A DNA stretch of 64,000 nucleotides from Fervidicoccaceae archaeon (lineage in GTDB: Archaea > Thermoproteota > Thermoprotei_A > Sulfolobales > Fervidicoccaceae). Location: NCBI GenBank assembly GCA_038734945.1, contig JAVYOA010000002.1:1-64000 (forward strand), read 5' to 3'. Position numbers: made by a program. Positions 34,736-40,700 of this stretch are shown here, piece by piece; the first letter of the stretch is position 1; each line of letters begins with the position of its first letter.

Positions 34736-37700
34736 GGCCCCATCGTTTCATAGAAAAGGTGAAAGAAATGTCTGAATACAAGGGAAAGAAGAGGCCGATC
34801 GATGTAATCAAGATTTCAGATGCTGAAATACCAATAACGGAAGATCTATTGAAGATACTGAAAAAATATGTGATGACCCAGATGACACTTGAGGAACTTG
34901 CTAGAGAGCTTGGTCTGGAAAGTTGGGAGAAGGCATATGAGTTCATCAAAGCCGTGCCTGCCTGGCTGATATGGACTCCGTTCACGATGTGGGAAATAAC
35001 AGAGTGATTTTTGACTTGGTAGTTGACGGCAAAGGTGGAGGCTATCTGTCATCGCTATCAGAAGCTTTGAAAAAGTATGAAATTCCCAAGGAGAGCGCTT
35101 TCATTGTTTTTAATGTCATCCAGAAGCACCCGAACAATCCTTTTATTACGCTAGTCAGCATCATTCTTTCCCAGAACACCAGTGACAGAAATGCTATGCT
35201 AGCTCTTGAGAGGATGGAAAAATACGGAATGACATCGCCGGAGGCTATATTGAAAGCTGGATACCAAAAAGTACTTGAAGCTGTTTATCCGTCCGGAATG
35301 GGCAAAATAAAAGCGAGAAGAATTCTTAACATATCCCAAATTGTCTTAGAAAATGGGGATTTTCTGGAAAAGGTCTGCGAGTTGGGGGAAAAAGGAAAAG
35401 AGCTTCTAATGCAGCTTGAAGGCGTTGGTTTAAAGACGGCAGATGTCTTCATGATTTCCTATTGCAATTATCCTTCATTTCCAGTCGATAGGCACATTGC
35501 TAGAATTACGGAGAGAATTGTTGGAAGAAAGATGAAGTATGAGGAAATTTCGAATTTTTGGAAGGAGAAATTGGGAGCATCTGACTATAAAATAGCGCAC
35601 ATGAAGCTGATAGCTATTGGAAGGGATATTTGCAGAAAAAGAAACCCGAAGTGCGGAATGTGCCCGCTCAGGGAATTCTGTGCTTCGAAGAGGGGGTGAA
35701 AGTCACATAGAGGAAATCAGAGGTATTCTAATAACAACAAGAACAAACAGAGAGAGAAGTGCAGAAAATGAGCTTGGAAGCTTGCTAATAAGCAGAGGAA
35801 TACCCTTCAGGATGGGGGCCGAGCTTGGTAATGGAGCAGTCCTCTTTTCAACAGAATTTCCATTTAAAGCATATAGGGCAGTAATTTCTTCTCTGCTCTC
35901 TGAACCGATGAGAGTTTATCCTCTTGTTAAGCTGAAGGACCTGGAGAGAATTCTATCATTGGTGAAAATAGATAAGATGAGATGCTATTTGAGGAAAAAA
36001 ATGGAAATCTGCAATGATATTGAGAATTATGCAAGGAAAATAATTGTAGGTAAGAATTTGGATAATACTCAGAGCTCTCTACATGTGATGCTGCACATAC
36101 AGGGATTGGGAGTATTTTATGGATATTCCCCCATTCCAAGAGATTGTGAGAGGTACGAAATGATTTTAAAGATGAGCAACCTTCGGGGATTCTGTTCTTC
36201 ATATGCAGATAAAGTATCAGCCTTGCTGTAAAGAGGAGAAATGGCGGCGGGGCCCCGCTCTTGAAAAGTAGCGGGGGGTGGATTCGAACCACCGACCTCG
36301 GGGTTCCTCCGAGGCCTCAGGCCCCTTATGAGCTTCGCGGGTTCGGGGCTACCGCCACTGCTTTATATGCATGGAAAGGATTAAAAGGTTTTACTATTTG
36401 AGAACTGTGTCATTCAAAACAGATTCAGCCCATTTCCTTCCATAGAACCTTGAGACTTCCTCGAAATTTTCCTCTACGAAAATCCTGAGGGCTTTTCTGC
36501 TCAGGACATCTGCTGCTTCGTTGTTCTCCCTTGGAATCCACTCGATTTTATATGACTTGAAATTTCTGAGAAGATTGATAGATTTGTTGTAAAGGGGGAT
36601 CAGCCTGGGTGCCTTTACTCTGTATTTGCCAATGAGTTGCTTGATTACGAGCTGGGAGTCTCCTCTTATGGTAATATCTTTTTCAGAAAGATCGCTTTCA
36701 ATAATTAGCTCCAGCCCTCTTATCAGAGCTGTGTACTCAGCAACGTTGTTTGAAACATTGTCTCCTCTAAATCCAGCACCTACAATTCCAAATTCTTCTT
36801 TCAGAACCTTTTTATTCTCGAAGATGACAACGCCGTATGTAGCTATCCCTCCAGGATTGATAGGCTCACACAGACCATCAAAATATAAAAGGAGACCCAA
36901 GCATTTCCACCTTAGAGCTTATAAACCGCAGTGTTTCTCTGCTTCAGCATGGGCAGCTTCCTTCTCACTTCTTCTATTTCGGAAACTTCTATGGTGATTT
37001 CTCTGTATTTTTCCCCTACACCAAGATCGTATATTACTTCTCCCATTGGACCTATGATGGTACTTCTTCCTGTAAAATTCTTTCCATACTGATTTACTAT
37101 AGCTAAGAATATTGTGTTCTCATGCGCTCTGGCCCTCCCCAATACATGCAGAATTTCTTCCTTCATGTCTCCCCTATACCAACCAGAAGGAACGATCACG
37201 AGCTCAGCACCTCCTAGGGCATAAGTTCTGAATAGTTCTGGAAACCTTATGTCATAGCATATTGCTACTGAGATTTTCGTGCCTTTCAGCTCGATTATTG
37301 AAGATGGTGCGTTTCCCGGAAGCATGAATTCGGATTCTCTATAGTCGTAAGCATCAAAGAGATGAGCTTTTCTATATCTCAGCAGAATTTCTCCTTTTGG
37401 ACTGAAAATCACTGCTTCATTATAGACCTTTGGTTTAGAGGCAGGAGTGAAGAGCGTTGCTAAGATGTGGACGCCTAGTTTGCTTGCCAATTCTTTTAGT
37501 GAAGAAGCAAAAGCTCCATCCAATTCTTCTGCCATCATATATATTCTATCTGGTTCATCTCCTGTAGGATTGTACATGAAATACTCTGGAGTAATAATGA
37601 GATCTGCTTCCCTCAAGTTTATTATATTATTCAACTTTTCTATGTTTTTTGCCTTATCCTTAGTGCTTTCCATCTGTACTATGCCAAGAGTTATACTTCT

Positions 37701-40700
37701 ATTTTTCATTTTTATTCCCCGAGGAATGTTCAAAGCTTATTTTTAATTTGATCACTAAGAAAAAATCCTCGAGAATGTATAAATATTATTTGGAAAGCAT
37801 GGAGTCTGATGTCCTCTCTCTCATAAAATATGAAACTTTTAGGTTGTAAATAAGCTAGTAGGGAAATACTTATTATTCCCATCCGATAGAGAAAAAGTTG
37901 TCATAACATAAACGGAAGGTATGAATTTTGAACGAAGAAAACGAATCTGAAAGAAATGTAACAAAAAAAGTTATGGAGCTAAAACAAGGCGAAAGCTCCA
38001 TAACAATAAAGGGAAGGGTTCTTGAAGCAAACGAACCAAAAACCATAGAAACGAAGAAAGGGACAAGAACAATAAGTGAGGCAGTTCTAGGCGACGAAAC
38101 TGGTAGAGTGAAGATGACATTGTGGGGAGATAAGGCAGGAAGCATTGAGGAAGGACAGGCTGTGAAGATAACGAACGCATGGACCACTGGATATAGAGGG
38201 AAGGTTCAACTGAATGTTGGGGCTAGCTCAGAAATAACTCAAATTGGAGATGAAGAAGTTCCCAATGCTGAGGAGATCCCCGAATCAGAGCCAGCAGCTC
38301 CTATGGAAGAGAGGAGGGGAGGCTTTGATAGGAGAGGAGGAAGGCGAGATTACAGACAAGGCGGTGGCTTCAGAAGAAGAGAATGGTGAGCTGCTAAATG
38401 AGCTATGCGGAAATAAAGGAAAAGAGATTTATGAGAAAGGGAGAAGAAGCAGGAACGAATAACGAGAACTTCTACATTACAGATGAATCTAATGTAACCT
38501 ATGAGCTATCTGCAGCTGTCTATTATGTCTGGAAGCTTGCTGATGGTATCAAGACAGTTGAGGAAATAGTTAAGCAAGCCAGTTCTGAGCTGAATATGCC
38601 AGAAGAAGAGCTTCAAGAACCAATAGCTGTTATCATGCTCAAGCTGCTCGAAAATAATCTTGTTTCAGAAAGCCTTGAATAAAAATATATAAAAACCCTT
38701 GGCCTAATTTTTTTATTGGCGGGGAAAAAAAGCGGGGTAGGGCAGCCAGGTAGCCCGCGGGAGGTGCGTGGGCTACCGCCCTATGATTTTTTCCAAAAAC
38801 AGAAAAAATCTAGAGCTTCTGAACTCTTATAGCTCCAACCGGACAAGATCCGGCTGCTTGTACGGCGCATTCATAGAGATCCTCGGGTATTTCTCCTTCT
38901 GAAAGTGAATCCGTCAAGTTAGTGGAGTACTTATCCACAACTCTGTTTTTGCCGTTATCGCTTCCAAGAACGAATACTTGCGGACATACTGTGGGAGCTA
39001 CACCACATGCTATGCATGTATCTCTGTCAACTGTTACCTTTACTTTTGCCATTGAGTTCACCCAGATTATTTTTAAACTCGTTATATTTAAATATGCAAC
39101 AATTGTTCCGAAAGTTCACATTTAAAAGTAATATCTTTCTTAGAAAAGGGATTTTTGGAAAGAGATCTATTTTGAATTGATTTGGCAAACGAGTCTCTAG
39201 CATAAAGTATTTAAATAGAATATAGTTGCAGAGAAGAGCTATTTGTTGAATAGAGTATTCTCAAGATTTTTCAAGAATTTTATGTCTCCAGCTGTCGATA
39301 TAATGACGCCGCTAACAAGATCTTCTATTTTATCTAGCACATTCTTAACGGTTGAAGCATCATAGCTCGGCTGGGAAATTCTCTCTATTATGCTCAAGTT
39401 CTTCTCTGTTTTTATTATGATATATGGATAAAGCTCTATCTTCAATTCTCTGCCTCTTTCAGAAATTCTCTCGAGCTTTTCAATTTCTTCCATAGTCATT
39501 CTGAGGATCAGGAATTTTTTGAAGCCCAGTGATAGTCTCTCCAAAATTTTTTGCTCATCATATCTCATGCTTATAATTGCTCCCAGCTTTTTTTCCAATT
39601 TGTAGTTTTTTGCCAGGGATAGGGCCTCTTCGGTAGTTATCTGGCTTTTAAATCCTCTCTCATCCTTCTCACCGGAAGTAACAAAAACGGCATCAATCCC
39701 AGTTAGATTAGCTGCCGAAACAAGTGAAATGAAGGAAATTGGGTTGAGATCGCTCAGCCTAATATGAGAAAATATTTCAGCTTTGGGACACTGTTGCTTT
39801 AAAATGCTGCCTATGACAATGGAGTTTGCTGAGGGGATGCTGAGTGGAGATTCAGGAATGTCCACTCCTGAGAAGATTGATTTCTCCTCACATATGAGAG
39901 AGTTTGCCTGCTTTAGTCTCTTTTCCTCCTTTCCTAGCTCAAATGATAATTCGGCAAAAAGCTTCAAAACTCCTTCACCTTTTCCTGTAATGTGCTACAC
40001 GTTTTTTGTGTAAGAAAGTATAGATATGAAATGCTTAAAAAGCTCATTATATAAGATACTAAGACTCAAGCAAGGAGGTCATTGAGGTAAAAGAAATGAA
40101 GGTTGTTCTTAGCTTTTCCGGCTCATTTCCAAGAGACGAGGGTGTCGCAAAAATTCATTCTATGAGAAAATCAGGCGAAATAGATGATACATCATTCATT
40201 GACAAAATAGCAACAAAGGAGCTGAAGCTGTTGAATTTGCTTGAAGCTCTTGGCTTCTCGCAGAGCACTGATGGAATGCTATGGTCGGATGATATAATCA
40301 ATCCAGTTGTTTCCATGTCAAATGTAGGAGTTAATGGACTAGTAAGATTCTTCGATAACAATTTCTTTCTAAGAGCCCCCATTGTTAAAGAAAGTATATC
40401 GTTCAGGGAGGGAGAATATATTAATTGGATAATAAAGATCAGAGAAAAATTGAAAGAAAAGAACAAATTAGAGCTCAAAGTTGCATTTCCCGGTCCAGCT
40501 ACACTTTCTCTCTTCTCTCAGAATAGCTTCTATCCTTCAAGCAAAGATCTAGTAATTGCTTGGGGAGAGAGCTTCCTCTTTCCCTTGATAGAGAGGTTGA
40601 AAAAGGAGGGATTTTCCACATTTGAGATTCATGAGCCAGCCATGACAAGCAGGAGAACTAGCAGAGAAATGAAGCAGGCTGCTTCTGAGGAATTATCGAA

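Follow-up and report, generated by a model that had tools for sequence, protein, structure and literature searches.

In the 64,000-nucleotide window analysed here (positions 1 to 64,000 of contig JAVYOA010000002.1 of a Fervidicoccaceae archaeon), two pieces of a tRNA gene lie on opposite strands, point apart and are separated by 2.4 kb. Four protein genes occupy the interval: on the minus strand an RNase H-like gene (36394-36900; Pfam RVT_3/RNase_H) and a CN hydrolase gene (36912-37733; Pfam CN_hydrolase), and on the plus strand a gene for an SSB-like OB fold (37928-38389; Pfam Ssb-like_OB) and a PqqD-like gene (38398-38682; Pfam PqqD). A preliminary description of this DNA had assigned the two pieces to initiator tRNA(CAU), with the same spacing and orientation, and had named RNase H, nitrilase-family, SSB and PqqD genes between them. 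Both pieces were located in the sequence and the Pfam families agree with these names. ARAGORN and Rfam at normal thresholds report no tRNA at either piece.

The 5' piece begins with exon 1 (38731..38761, plus strand), which covers tRNA positions 1-30, namely the 5' strand of the acceptor stem, the D-arm and C27-G30 of the anticodon stem. It is 31 nt long and not 30, because the D-loop has position 17a; the start given in the preliminary description stands, and its end at 38760 has to be moved one base further. Exon 1 is followed by a 20-nt trailer (38762..38781, ending at 38780/81), AGGTGCGT plus GGGCTACCGCC, which consists of AGG (bulge and first pairs), TGCGT and then the leader-pairing part GGGCTACCGCC at 38770-38780. 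A run of six T (38787..38792, plus strand) is the likely transcription stop of this piece; a T-run follows the trailer also in the related genomes G001 and G002 and in the metagenome contig L055. Upstream of exon 1 lies GGCGGGG (38718..38724, plus strand), complementary to CCCCGCC (36246..36252, minus strand), which flanks the 3' piece on its 3' side. GGCGGG occurs at most 25 nt upstream of the initiator 5' end in 22 of 24 cases examined across the order, and one genome (G022) carries the covarying outer-flank pair GGGGCCG/CGGCCCC.

The 3' piece (36361-36269, minus strand) retains the coordinates and the parts reported earlier, i.e. a leader, nucleotides 31-73 and a further 22-nt intron. Within the leader (36334..36361), GGCGGTAGCCC (36356-36346) pairs with the trailer; CGAACC follows, then CGCG, which pairs with C25-G28, and AA in the 3' bulge. 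Exon 2 (36327..36333) comprises G31-A37 and bears the anticodon CAT. The 22-nt cis intron (36305..36326), with a GGCC-TGA-GGCC hairpin, is placed at 37/38, although 38/39 fits equally; this site is also occupied by an intron in genomes of three sister genera (G004, G005 and G006). Exon 3 (36269..36304) spans A38-A73 and provides the 3' strand of the anticodon stem, the variable loop, the T-arm, the 3' strand of the acceptor stem and the discriminator A; CCA is not encoded.

Identity, copy number and conservation of the tRNA

Archaeal initiator tRNA-Met is marked by the anticodon CAU, the pair A1-U72 and a row of three G-C pairs that forms the foot of the anticodon stem. The joined exons are recognised by ARAGORN as a 74-nt tRNA-Met(cat) with a perfect cloverleaf, A1-T72 and G28-G31:C39-C42. 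At 73 of 74 positions they agree with the initiator gene of G017, which lacks introns and scores 68.2 bits with the Rfam tRNA model. All 28 genomes inspected, out of 31 related ones, have near-identical exons and share the conserved flanks. The initiator marks cited before, A1-U72 and the G-C pairs, are both present in the joined exons, and the other two true CAT tRNAs of the genome have G1-C72. The third 'Met' tRNA called by ARAGORN has in fact the anticodon loop TGT.

An intact initiator gene was not found in this 99.95%-complete genome, assembled in 9 contigs, for which ARAGORN reports 43 tRNAs and Rfam 41 above cut-off. In principle, an inversion could have broken the gene and left the two pieces as degenerating fragments, with the working copy residing in an unassembled part of the genome; the nine contigs and the frequent loss of tRNA genes from metagenome assemblies would speak for this. 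The completeness speaks against it, as does the single place found for each piece query both here and in the same-genus genome G002 (98% complete). G002 has both pieces on opposite strands, 2.5 kb apart, among neighbouring proteins 40-95% identical to those here, and the independent contig L055 has them on opposite strands 3.6 kb apart, in the gene order seen here. Exon 1 is identical in G001, G002 and L055, and exon 3 in G002 and L055. The exons, the trailer/leader duplex and a TATA-like motif are unchanged among the present genome, G002 and L055, whereas divergence is seen in the flanks and in the second intron; remnants would not persist in this way, and we therefore regard decay as very unlikely.

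The opposite-strand layout might also be a false inversion of a continuous gene, since short-read assemblies can break or misjoin at repeats and an 11-mer of the duplex is present twice. This 11-bp repeat is, however, far too short to mislead an assembler, and the identical layout recurs in the separately assembled G002 and in L055. Moreover, one contig of run X3 spans 36270-38900, contigs of run X4 from a second study cover 36150-36498 and 38047-38760, with both outer junctions, and no joint linking 38761 to 36333 was found in the DNA runs. An assembly artefact is hardly conceivable. The split layout is conserved in three species-level lineages, and the pieces form a real and, as judged by their sequence, probably functional split tRNA gene.

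Pairing, promoter-like motifs and predicted processing

The trailer and leader form a duplex of 11 Watson-Crick pairs, 9 of them G-C. This pairing and the cofold energy of -85.8 kcal/mol for the two pieces, both reported before, were reproduced. When the 40 nt after exon 1 were compared with the 40 nt before exon 2, none of 5000 shuffles reached an 11-bp match (the largest, 10 bp, occurred once). The 11-mer is found at only two places genome-wide, both at this pair of pieces, and in L055 and G002 the duplex extends to 12-16 bp. A bulge-helix-bulge at 30/31 can be drawn with Watson-Crick pairs, comprising a 4-bp central helix, two 3-nt bulges and one outer helix. Forcing the fold into this conformer gives -80.3 kcal/mol, 5.5 above the free optimum; C25 and G26 are taken out of the D-stem region and the second outer helix is missing. 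Because the exon-side outer helix is absent, the form is a relaxed one. The model thus indicates that the 11-bp duplex can set up a relaxed bulge-helix-bulge at 30/31. By the geometry rule for such motifs, the cut would fall after the second base of a bulge.

No single transcript can contain both pieces, encoded as they are on opposite strands and facing away from each other, here as well as in G002 and L055. With a BRE/TATA weight matrix learned from the regions upstream of the 43 ARAGORN tRNAs of the genome, the 5' piece shows the motif AAAAATATATAAAA (38681..38694, plus strand; 11.2 bits), 50 nt before A1 and conserved in G001 and G002. The 3' piece shows TAAAACCTTTTAAT (36380..36393, minus strand; 10.9 bits), which abuts the RNase H-like gene at its stop codon and starts 37 nt before the leader (GGCGG). 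The best scores of random 70-nt windows have their 99th percentile at 10.9 bits as well, and the tRNA motifs have a median of 11.4. This motif is kept in G002 and L055 while the remaining upstream region has diverged. Among other split or long-interrupted 3' parts scanned, 7 of 7 have a motif (6.3-12.9 bits) that starts 37-40 nt before the leader. Each piece would accordingly possess its own promoter at tRNA-like distances, a reading drawn from sequence. The single metatranscriptome run, of which about 3% was read, yielded 0 reads for this stretch, too thin a sample to bear on transcription.

Alternatively, the pieces may be real and expressed as processed mRNA tails (nitrilase-RNase H and SSB-PqqD) without own promoters, or may form a non-covalent two-piece tRNA that is never ligated. 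A same-strand gene does end 33-48 nt upstream of each piece, and in relatives the whole gene also follows PqqD. Against these readings stand the TATA-like motif, of tRNA quality and customary spacing from the leader both here and at the 7 comparable loci, and the genes encoding EndA and RtcB. Read-through transcription would leave the trans-splicing model unchanged, and the split tRNAs described in the cited parts of PMC3218864 and PMC4033280 are all ligated. We consider both variants quite improbable.

For the split gene, we infer where the transcripts start and stop, where they are cleaved, that they are ligated and that the product functions, as follows. One RNA would start near 38718, contain exon 1 and the 20-nt trailer and stop at the T-run. 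The other would start at about 36358 on the opposite strand and consist of a leader of about 24 nt, exon 2, the 22-nt cis intron and exon 3. They would anneal through three helices: the extended 11-bp trailer/leader duplex, the 7-bp acceptor stem and probably the 7-bp helix of the outer flanks. At the junction, C25-G28 would pair with the leader CGCG, flanked by the bulges G29-G30-A and A-A-G31, with GG/CC and the long duplex forming the outer helix. A heteromeric splicing endonuclease, of the alpha-beta type that can act on relaxed motifs, would then cut after G30, before G31 and at the cis intron; RtcB would join the ends, after which the flanks would be trimmed and CCA added. Genes for these enzymes are present: endA for the alpha subunit (118 bits, above cut-off), RtcB (584 bits) and a second endonuclease paralogue. 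The best match of the latter is the beta subunit, at 48 bits and below the NCBIfam cut-off of 157, and by this similarity it is likely the beta subunit of the splicing endonuclease.

Origin of the split and comparison with other tRNA genes

According to the preliminary description, one same-genus relative has both pieces and another the 5' piece only, and the gene is continuous with a cis intron at 30/31 in the other genera of the family. The first statement applies to G002 and G001, respectively; in G001 (87% complete) the 5' piece is present, and the 3' piece was not found in this genome, where the contig ends inside the CN-hydrolase gene. The second holds for G004, G005 and G006, representing three sister genera, where a continuous gene carries a 25-44-nt cis intron AGG...CCCGCGAA at 30/31. 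It fails for the fourth other genus (G003 and G007), which is devoid of a 30/31 intron and has a 1616-nt interruption at 37/38 instead. The interruption starts with AG(G/A) and ends with CCGCGAA in 11 of 11 inspected genomes having it at 30/31, and likewise in L055; G018 shows the paired change GA...TC replacing GG...CC at the intron ends.

In a quick one-gene RtcB tree, the genus is nested within a clade of cis-intron-bearing genera, and the split is therefore derived. Together with the identical intron ends in sister genera, this nesting agrees with the earlier proposal of a recent rearrangement inside the 30/31 intron. The SSB and PqqD genes also precede the continuous initiator gene in G004, G005 and G006. 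The synteny described before was recovered: G004 has the order SSB-PqqD-iMet-B-A, and here A-B-3' piece faces away from SSB-PqqD-5' piece. The caveat that one inversion leaves the two genes next to the 3' piece unexplained likewise stands, as the RNase H and CN-hydrolase homologues were not found adjoining the initiator gene in G004-G006. These two genes are not accounted for by one inversion alone, and the rearrangement history is not fully explained. Taken as a whole, we are confident that the locus is a working split gene for the only initiator tRNA-Met of the cell and that it arose within the genus from a gene with a 30/31 cis intron, by a rearrangement with one breakpoint inside that intron.

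Split tRNA genes are already known and rare; new is this initiator case, caught soon after the split. A 2014 review counts 29 trans-spliced tRNA genes in seven genomes, as given in the cited part of PMC4033280. Among the closest counterparts is tRNA-Lys(CUU), which is split in Staphylothermus marinus, S. hellenicus and Nanoarchaeum equitans (Chan, Cozen and Lowe 2011; PMC3218864). In the portion cited, it likewise has two pieces with own promoters, a join at 30/31 and a bulge-helix-bulge from complementary trailer and leader, and its split is judged recent, with an intron at the same place in related species. The present gene differs in being an initiator, in its pieces 2.4 kb apart pointing away from each other, in the further cis intron of the 3' piece and in the relaxed form that lacks the outer exon-side helix. 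The split initiator tRNA of N. equitans (Randau et al. 2005, as summarised in PMC3218864) also consists of two separately encoded halves with no intact copy, but is joined at 37/38, from halves that share a strand and are separated by about 32 kb; the present gene is joined at 30/31, the lineage is unrelated and sister genera have cis-intron orthologues. In the tri-split tRNA-Gly of Caldivirga maquilingensis (Fujishima et al. 2009; cited after PMC4033280), leaders correspond to introns of related species, as the leader does here, in a gene of two pieces rather than three.

In Aeropyrum pernix tRNA-Asp(GUC), according to the account cited from PMC3218864, the split is collinear and the long 'intron' harbours a promoter; from its strong BRE/TATA, transcription is predicted to begin 20-25 nt ahead of the 3' exon, yielding a G+C-rich leader. 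This geometry is matched here, in the collinear interrupted initiator genes of G010, G018 and G007 and in the Lys(CUU) gene of the present genome; unlike in A. pernix, the two parts here are on opposite strands. Apart from the initiator, Gln and Lys are further fragmented tRNA genes of this genome, and tRNA-Gln can be made only in trans, from three genes.

The initiator gene takes several forms across the order. Of the 28 genomes inspected, 11 have it without introns; some of the remainder carry short cis introns, located at 30/31, at 37/38 and in the T-loop, and some have collinear genes whose 'introns' measure 0.18-1.6 kb and include a T-run and, 37-40 nt ahead of a long duplex, a TATA-like motif. 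Further fragmented initiator genes occur in other families, among them a three-piece gene in G009; pieces on opposite strands are seen in two unrelated families, with two pieces here and three in G009. G010, of another family, has a near-identical duplex and an internal TATA-like motif in a collinear gene; hence, independent transcription may predate the inversion. The duplex that the genus shares with the distant G010 is also a complement of the D-arm within the exon itself. We tentatively suggest, while holding it somewhat doubtful, that the initiator gene of the order is a hot spot of fragmentation in which every stage is kept, the long-intron collinear genes being functionally two transcripts already and transcriptional independence having come first. 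If so, this independence would make later inversions harmless, and the duplex shared with G010 would be either an intron that moved laterally or a 'self-masking' device under selection.

In genomes of this kind the initiator escapes standard tRNA finders. Split tRNA genes bear centrally on the question of whether tRNA halves are old or the product of recent breakage. In the present case the split affects an essential single-copy gene whose unbroken, intron-bearing form is alive in sister genera, which makes it a clear instance of a gene broken late, at an intron, and with the related loci one tRNA in one order offers a graded series from intron to split gene.

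Anatomy of the two pieces and search for an intact gene

Read from the sequence, the initiator tRNA-Met is encoded in two pieces on opposite strands. Exon 1 (tRNA positions 1-30; 38731-38761, + strand) comprises the acceptor 5' strand, a D-arm carrying the extra base 17a and C27-G30, and is followed by AGGTGCGT, then GGGCTACCGCC and, six bases further, TTTTTT. The 3' piece (36361-36269, - strand) consists of GGCGGTAGCCC, CGAACCCGCGAA, G31-CTCATA(A) and 22 further bases, followed by CCCCG, the variable loop, the T-arm (loop TTCGAAT), CCCCGCT and the discriminator A. The coordinates given in the preliminary description are right except for the end of the 5' exon, which at 38760 fell one base short of the true end at 38761. 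ARAGORN detects no tRNA at the site of either piece. Joined by coordinates with a script and given to ARAGORN, the exons are recognised as a tRNA-Met(cat) of 74 nt that has A1-T72 and, at the base of the anticodon stem, four G-C pairs; a single T-loop base distinguishes this product from the intronless initiator gene of genome G017 (68.2 bits, Rfam tRNA model). Rfam at a permissive threshold gave only chance-level matches, all rejected: to Cyano-2 over the 5' piece (21.7 bits vs a gathering score of 40), to tRNA-Sec over the 3' piece (16.9 vs 47) and to sR46 within the SSB gene (21.8 vs 50). Elsewhere in the window, a tRNA-Pro(GGG) gene (34647-34744, + strand) is 98 nt long and reaches only 50 bits, and therefore probably carries a non-canonical intron.

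The genome (1.34 Mb, 9 contigs) is rated 99.95% complete, and neither ARAGORN, Rfam nor a T-arm and acceptor-strand scan revealed an intact initiator gene in it. ARAGORN counts 43 tRNAs and Rfam 41 matches above cut-off. Two of the three ARAGORN 'Met' genes have G1-C72; the third, at G000:C4:22843-22933, is in fact a tRNA with a TGT anticodon and a D-arm insertion. The scan produced 63 matches, 43 in known tRNAs and 20 elsewhere, and only two of the latter resemble a tRNA end, namely the 3' piece of the initiator and C9:274216.

Pairing and predicted transcription and processing of the pieces

The cofold of the two pieces reported in the preliminary description was reproduced at the same value (-85.8 kcal/mol), with acceptor stem, T-arm and trailer/leader duplex. 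The 40 nt 3' of exon 1 and the 40 nt 5' of exon 2 share a perfect 11-bp match, which was attained in none of 5000 shuffles and whose 11-mer has no other occurrence in the genome. A bulge-helix-bulge, the motif which is cut after the second base of each bulge, can be drawn at the junction: C25-G26-C27-G28 pairs with leader CGCG in the centre, the bulges are G29-G30-A and A-A-G31, and the outer helix consists of GG/CC, T-A, C-G and G-C and then the 11 bp. Imposed on the fold, it gives -80.3 kcal/mol. Since the exon-side outer helix is absent, this is a relaxed form of the motif, a form reported to be cut by heteromeric endonucleases (PMC4033280). All 30/31 interruptions that we read start with AG(G/A) and end with CCGCGAA, and that of G018, another genome of the order, shows the paired change GA...TC. 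Read by eye, the second intron (22 nt) is compatible with the motif too, having a GGCC-TGA-GGCC hairpin and three of the four central pairs. Within 38749-38780 the trailer is complementary to a second partner, the D-arm/anticodon-stem strand of exon 1 itself (GGTAGCCCGCG vs CGTGGGCTACC). Folded alone, the 5' piece forms a hairpin of 11 bp (-30.5 kcal/mol), so that the leader mimics the exon.

Concerning separate transcription, a 14-nt matrix (consensus GAAAAGATTTAAAA) was trained on the upstream regions of the 43 tRNAs of this genome, where the motif usually begins 39-45 nt ahead of the gene. The matrix gives 11.2 bits upstream of the 5' piece and 10.9 bits at a TATA-like motif of the 3' piece, TAAAACCTTTTAAT (36393-36380); in random 70-nt windows the best score has its 99th percentile at 10.9. 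The latter motif immediately follows the stop codon of the RNase H-like gene, 37 nt upstream of GGCGG, and is conserved in same-genus genome G002 and in metagenome contig L055 despite divergence of the remaining upstream region. The same matrix located a motif in all seven other 3' parts scanned, 37-40 nt upstream of the leader (6.3-12.9 bits). In G000, the genome under study, the trailer is followed by a T-run, as it is in G001 (also of this genus), G002 and L055. Metatranscriptome X10 of a related study, of which about 3% of the run was read, yielded no reads on this stretch.

The genome encodes endA (118 bits vs a cut-off of 59.6), a second endA paralogue whose best match, 'subunit beta', lies below the cut-off at 48 bits, and RtcB (584 bits). 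The two endonuclease genes are at G000:C1:82411-82989 and G000:C2:192646-193104, and that for RtcB is at C3:17402-18709. The RtcB open frame of G004, from another genus of the family (L073, G004:C1:711103-715257), is 954 aa long, and its match to the query begins only at residue 52; an intein-like insertion may be present.

Relatives and probable origin of the split

What had been described for two same-genus genomes was found again. G002 (98% complete) has both pieces on opposite strands, 2.5 kb apart, with exons identical to those studied here and a duplex of 16 bp. In G001 (87% complete) the 5' piece and the same trailer are present, and the contig ends inside the CN-hydrolase gene. The independent 41-kb contig L055 carries both pieces at a distance of 3.6 kb; its gene order is the same except for one additional gene, which G001 has too. 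The junctions of the split gene are moreover covered by contigs from other runs.

For the other genera of the family, a continuous gene with a 30/31 intron had been proposed. This holds for G004, G005 and G006, whose hairpin introns measure 30, 25 and 44 nt, respectively, and in which SSB-PqqD lies upstream of the gene, and fails for G003 and G007, which lack the 30/31 intron and have instead a 1616-nt interruption at 37/38 with an antisense ATPase gene inside. In a quick, midpoint-rooted tree of the single gene RtcB the order is (G006,(G005,(G004, this genus))); the rows for G012 and G026 represent a wrong ORF (branch length 10) and are to be disregarded, and no RtcB match was found in G003 or G007. 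As the genus is nested among G004-G006, the split is derived, in agreement with the recent origin that had been suggested for it.

Compared with G004, the blocks A-B-3' piece (A and B being the genes beside its initiator) and SSB-PqqD-5' piece are each intact and point away from each other. This arrangement is consistent with an inversion that had one of its breakpoints in the loop of the intron, by which the inverted repeat of the hairpin would have become the present direct 11-bp DNA repeat. A single inversion leaves the two genes beside the 3' piece unexplained, as had already been remarked: the RNase H-like and CN-hydrolase genes were not found beside SSB or the initiator gene in G004-G006, which calls for at least one more event. 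The RNase H gene turned up in G004 alone, at a distance of 140 kb, and the best CN-hydrolase match (56% identity) is in G010, of another family, on a contig other than that of its initiator gene. In G010 this gene is collinear (L048, G010:C1:105000-116000, - strand) with a 252-nt interruption at 30/31, whose duplex GGGGCTACCGTCCC/GGGACGGTAGCCCC is near-identical to that of the window apart from one inserted T-A pair, and which contains a T-run and a TATA-like motif of 12.7 bits as well. Import of the 3' piece from a G010-like lineage was considered and is not supported: the end of its second intron resembles that of G005, from its own family, and the T-loop intron of G010 is absent.

Fragmented tRNA genes in the order and in known systems

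Both tRNA-Gln genes of this genome seem to be assembled from three genes, each on a different contig (L056, G000:C9:274150-274450, -; L057, G000:C3:24200-24480, -; L058, G000:C4:17800-18050, +). A single 3' half, which has a TATA-like motif of its own (10.8 bits) and encodes CCA, would serve two 5' halves with anticodons TTG and CTG, whose trailers CCAGCCTCCTC and CCTCCTCAACCCCC pair with overlapping stretches of the single leader GGGGGTTGAGGAGGCTGG (cofolds -81.8 and -83.4 kcal/mol), much like the shared 3' half of Nanoarchaeum equitans tRNA-Glu. The tRNA-Lys(CUU) gene (L059, G000:C9:427850-428200, +) is probably a collinear split gene; its 155-nt interruption at about 30/31, the same site as in the split Lys(CUU) of Staphylothermus, contains a 12-bp duplex GCCCGATACCCC/GGGGTATCGGGC, a T-run 3' of the trailer and, 38 nt upstream of the leader, a TATA-like motif of 11.5 bits.

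Initiator genes are interrupted elsewhere in the order as well. G009, of another family, has its gene in three pieces (L088, G009:C25:1-3000): positions 1-30 at 33-63 (+), positions 31-58 from about 2140 to 2088 (-; TATA-like motif 10.5 bits) and positions 59-73 from about 1340 to 1299 (-; 14.0 bits), with trailer/leader duplexes of 12 and 15 bp. Here the gene was independently split at 30/31 onto opposite strands. In the sister genome G021 the same three sites are occupied by short cis introns. Collinear genes with long interruptions occur in G018 (L042, G018:C7:11500-15000, 945-2519; 1575 nt at 30/31) and G007 (L041, G007:C58, 1748-3371; 1616 nt at 37/38, alike in G003); both have a long terminal duplex, and in both a TATA-like motif precedes the leader. 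The antisense ORF in G007 encodes 463 aa (ATPase_2/DUF234); the 373-aa one in G018, first taken by eye for a LAGLIDADG endonuclease, matched no Pfam family at E <=0.001, so that this assignment was dropped. In G024 (L105, G024:C24:10685-13698, -) a 729-nt T-loop interruption leaves a terminal exon of 14 nt, encoded on the same strand; G014, of the same genus, has an intronless gene.

The joining of split tRNAs at a bulge-helix-bulge is well documented; described cases are an N. equitans initiator split at 37/38, Lys(CUU) split at 30/31 in Staphylothermus and N. equitans, and a promoter within the long 'intron' of Aeropyrum pernix tRNA-Asp (PMC3218864, PMC4033280). PMC7080975 concerns other genomes. 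In the library searched, which does not extend to subscription journals, none of the papers as listed reports an initiator split at 30/31. Judged from its sequence, the split initiator gene is real and very probably functional.

Across the order, GGCGGG(G) stands 5-13 nt upstream of initiator genes at 22 of 24 5' ends; a crude pattern caught CCCGCC no more than 40 nt downstream at 12 of 18 3' ends. Complementary upstream and downstream sequences also flank the split gene (38718-38724, +; 36246-36252, -), and the flanks of G022 show a covarying pair, GGGGCCG/CGGCCCC. These flanks may form a processing helix; if so, the two pieces of the split initiator gene would be held by a third intermolecular helix.
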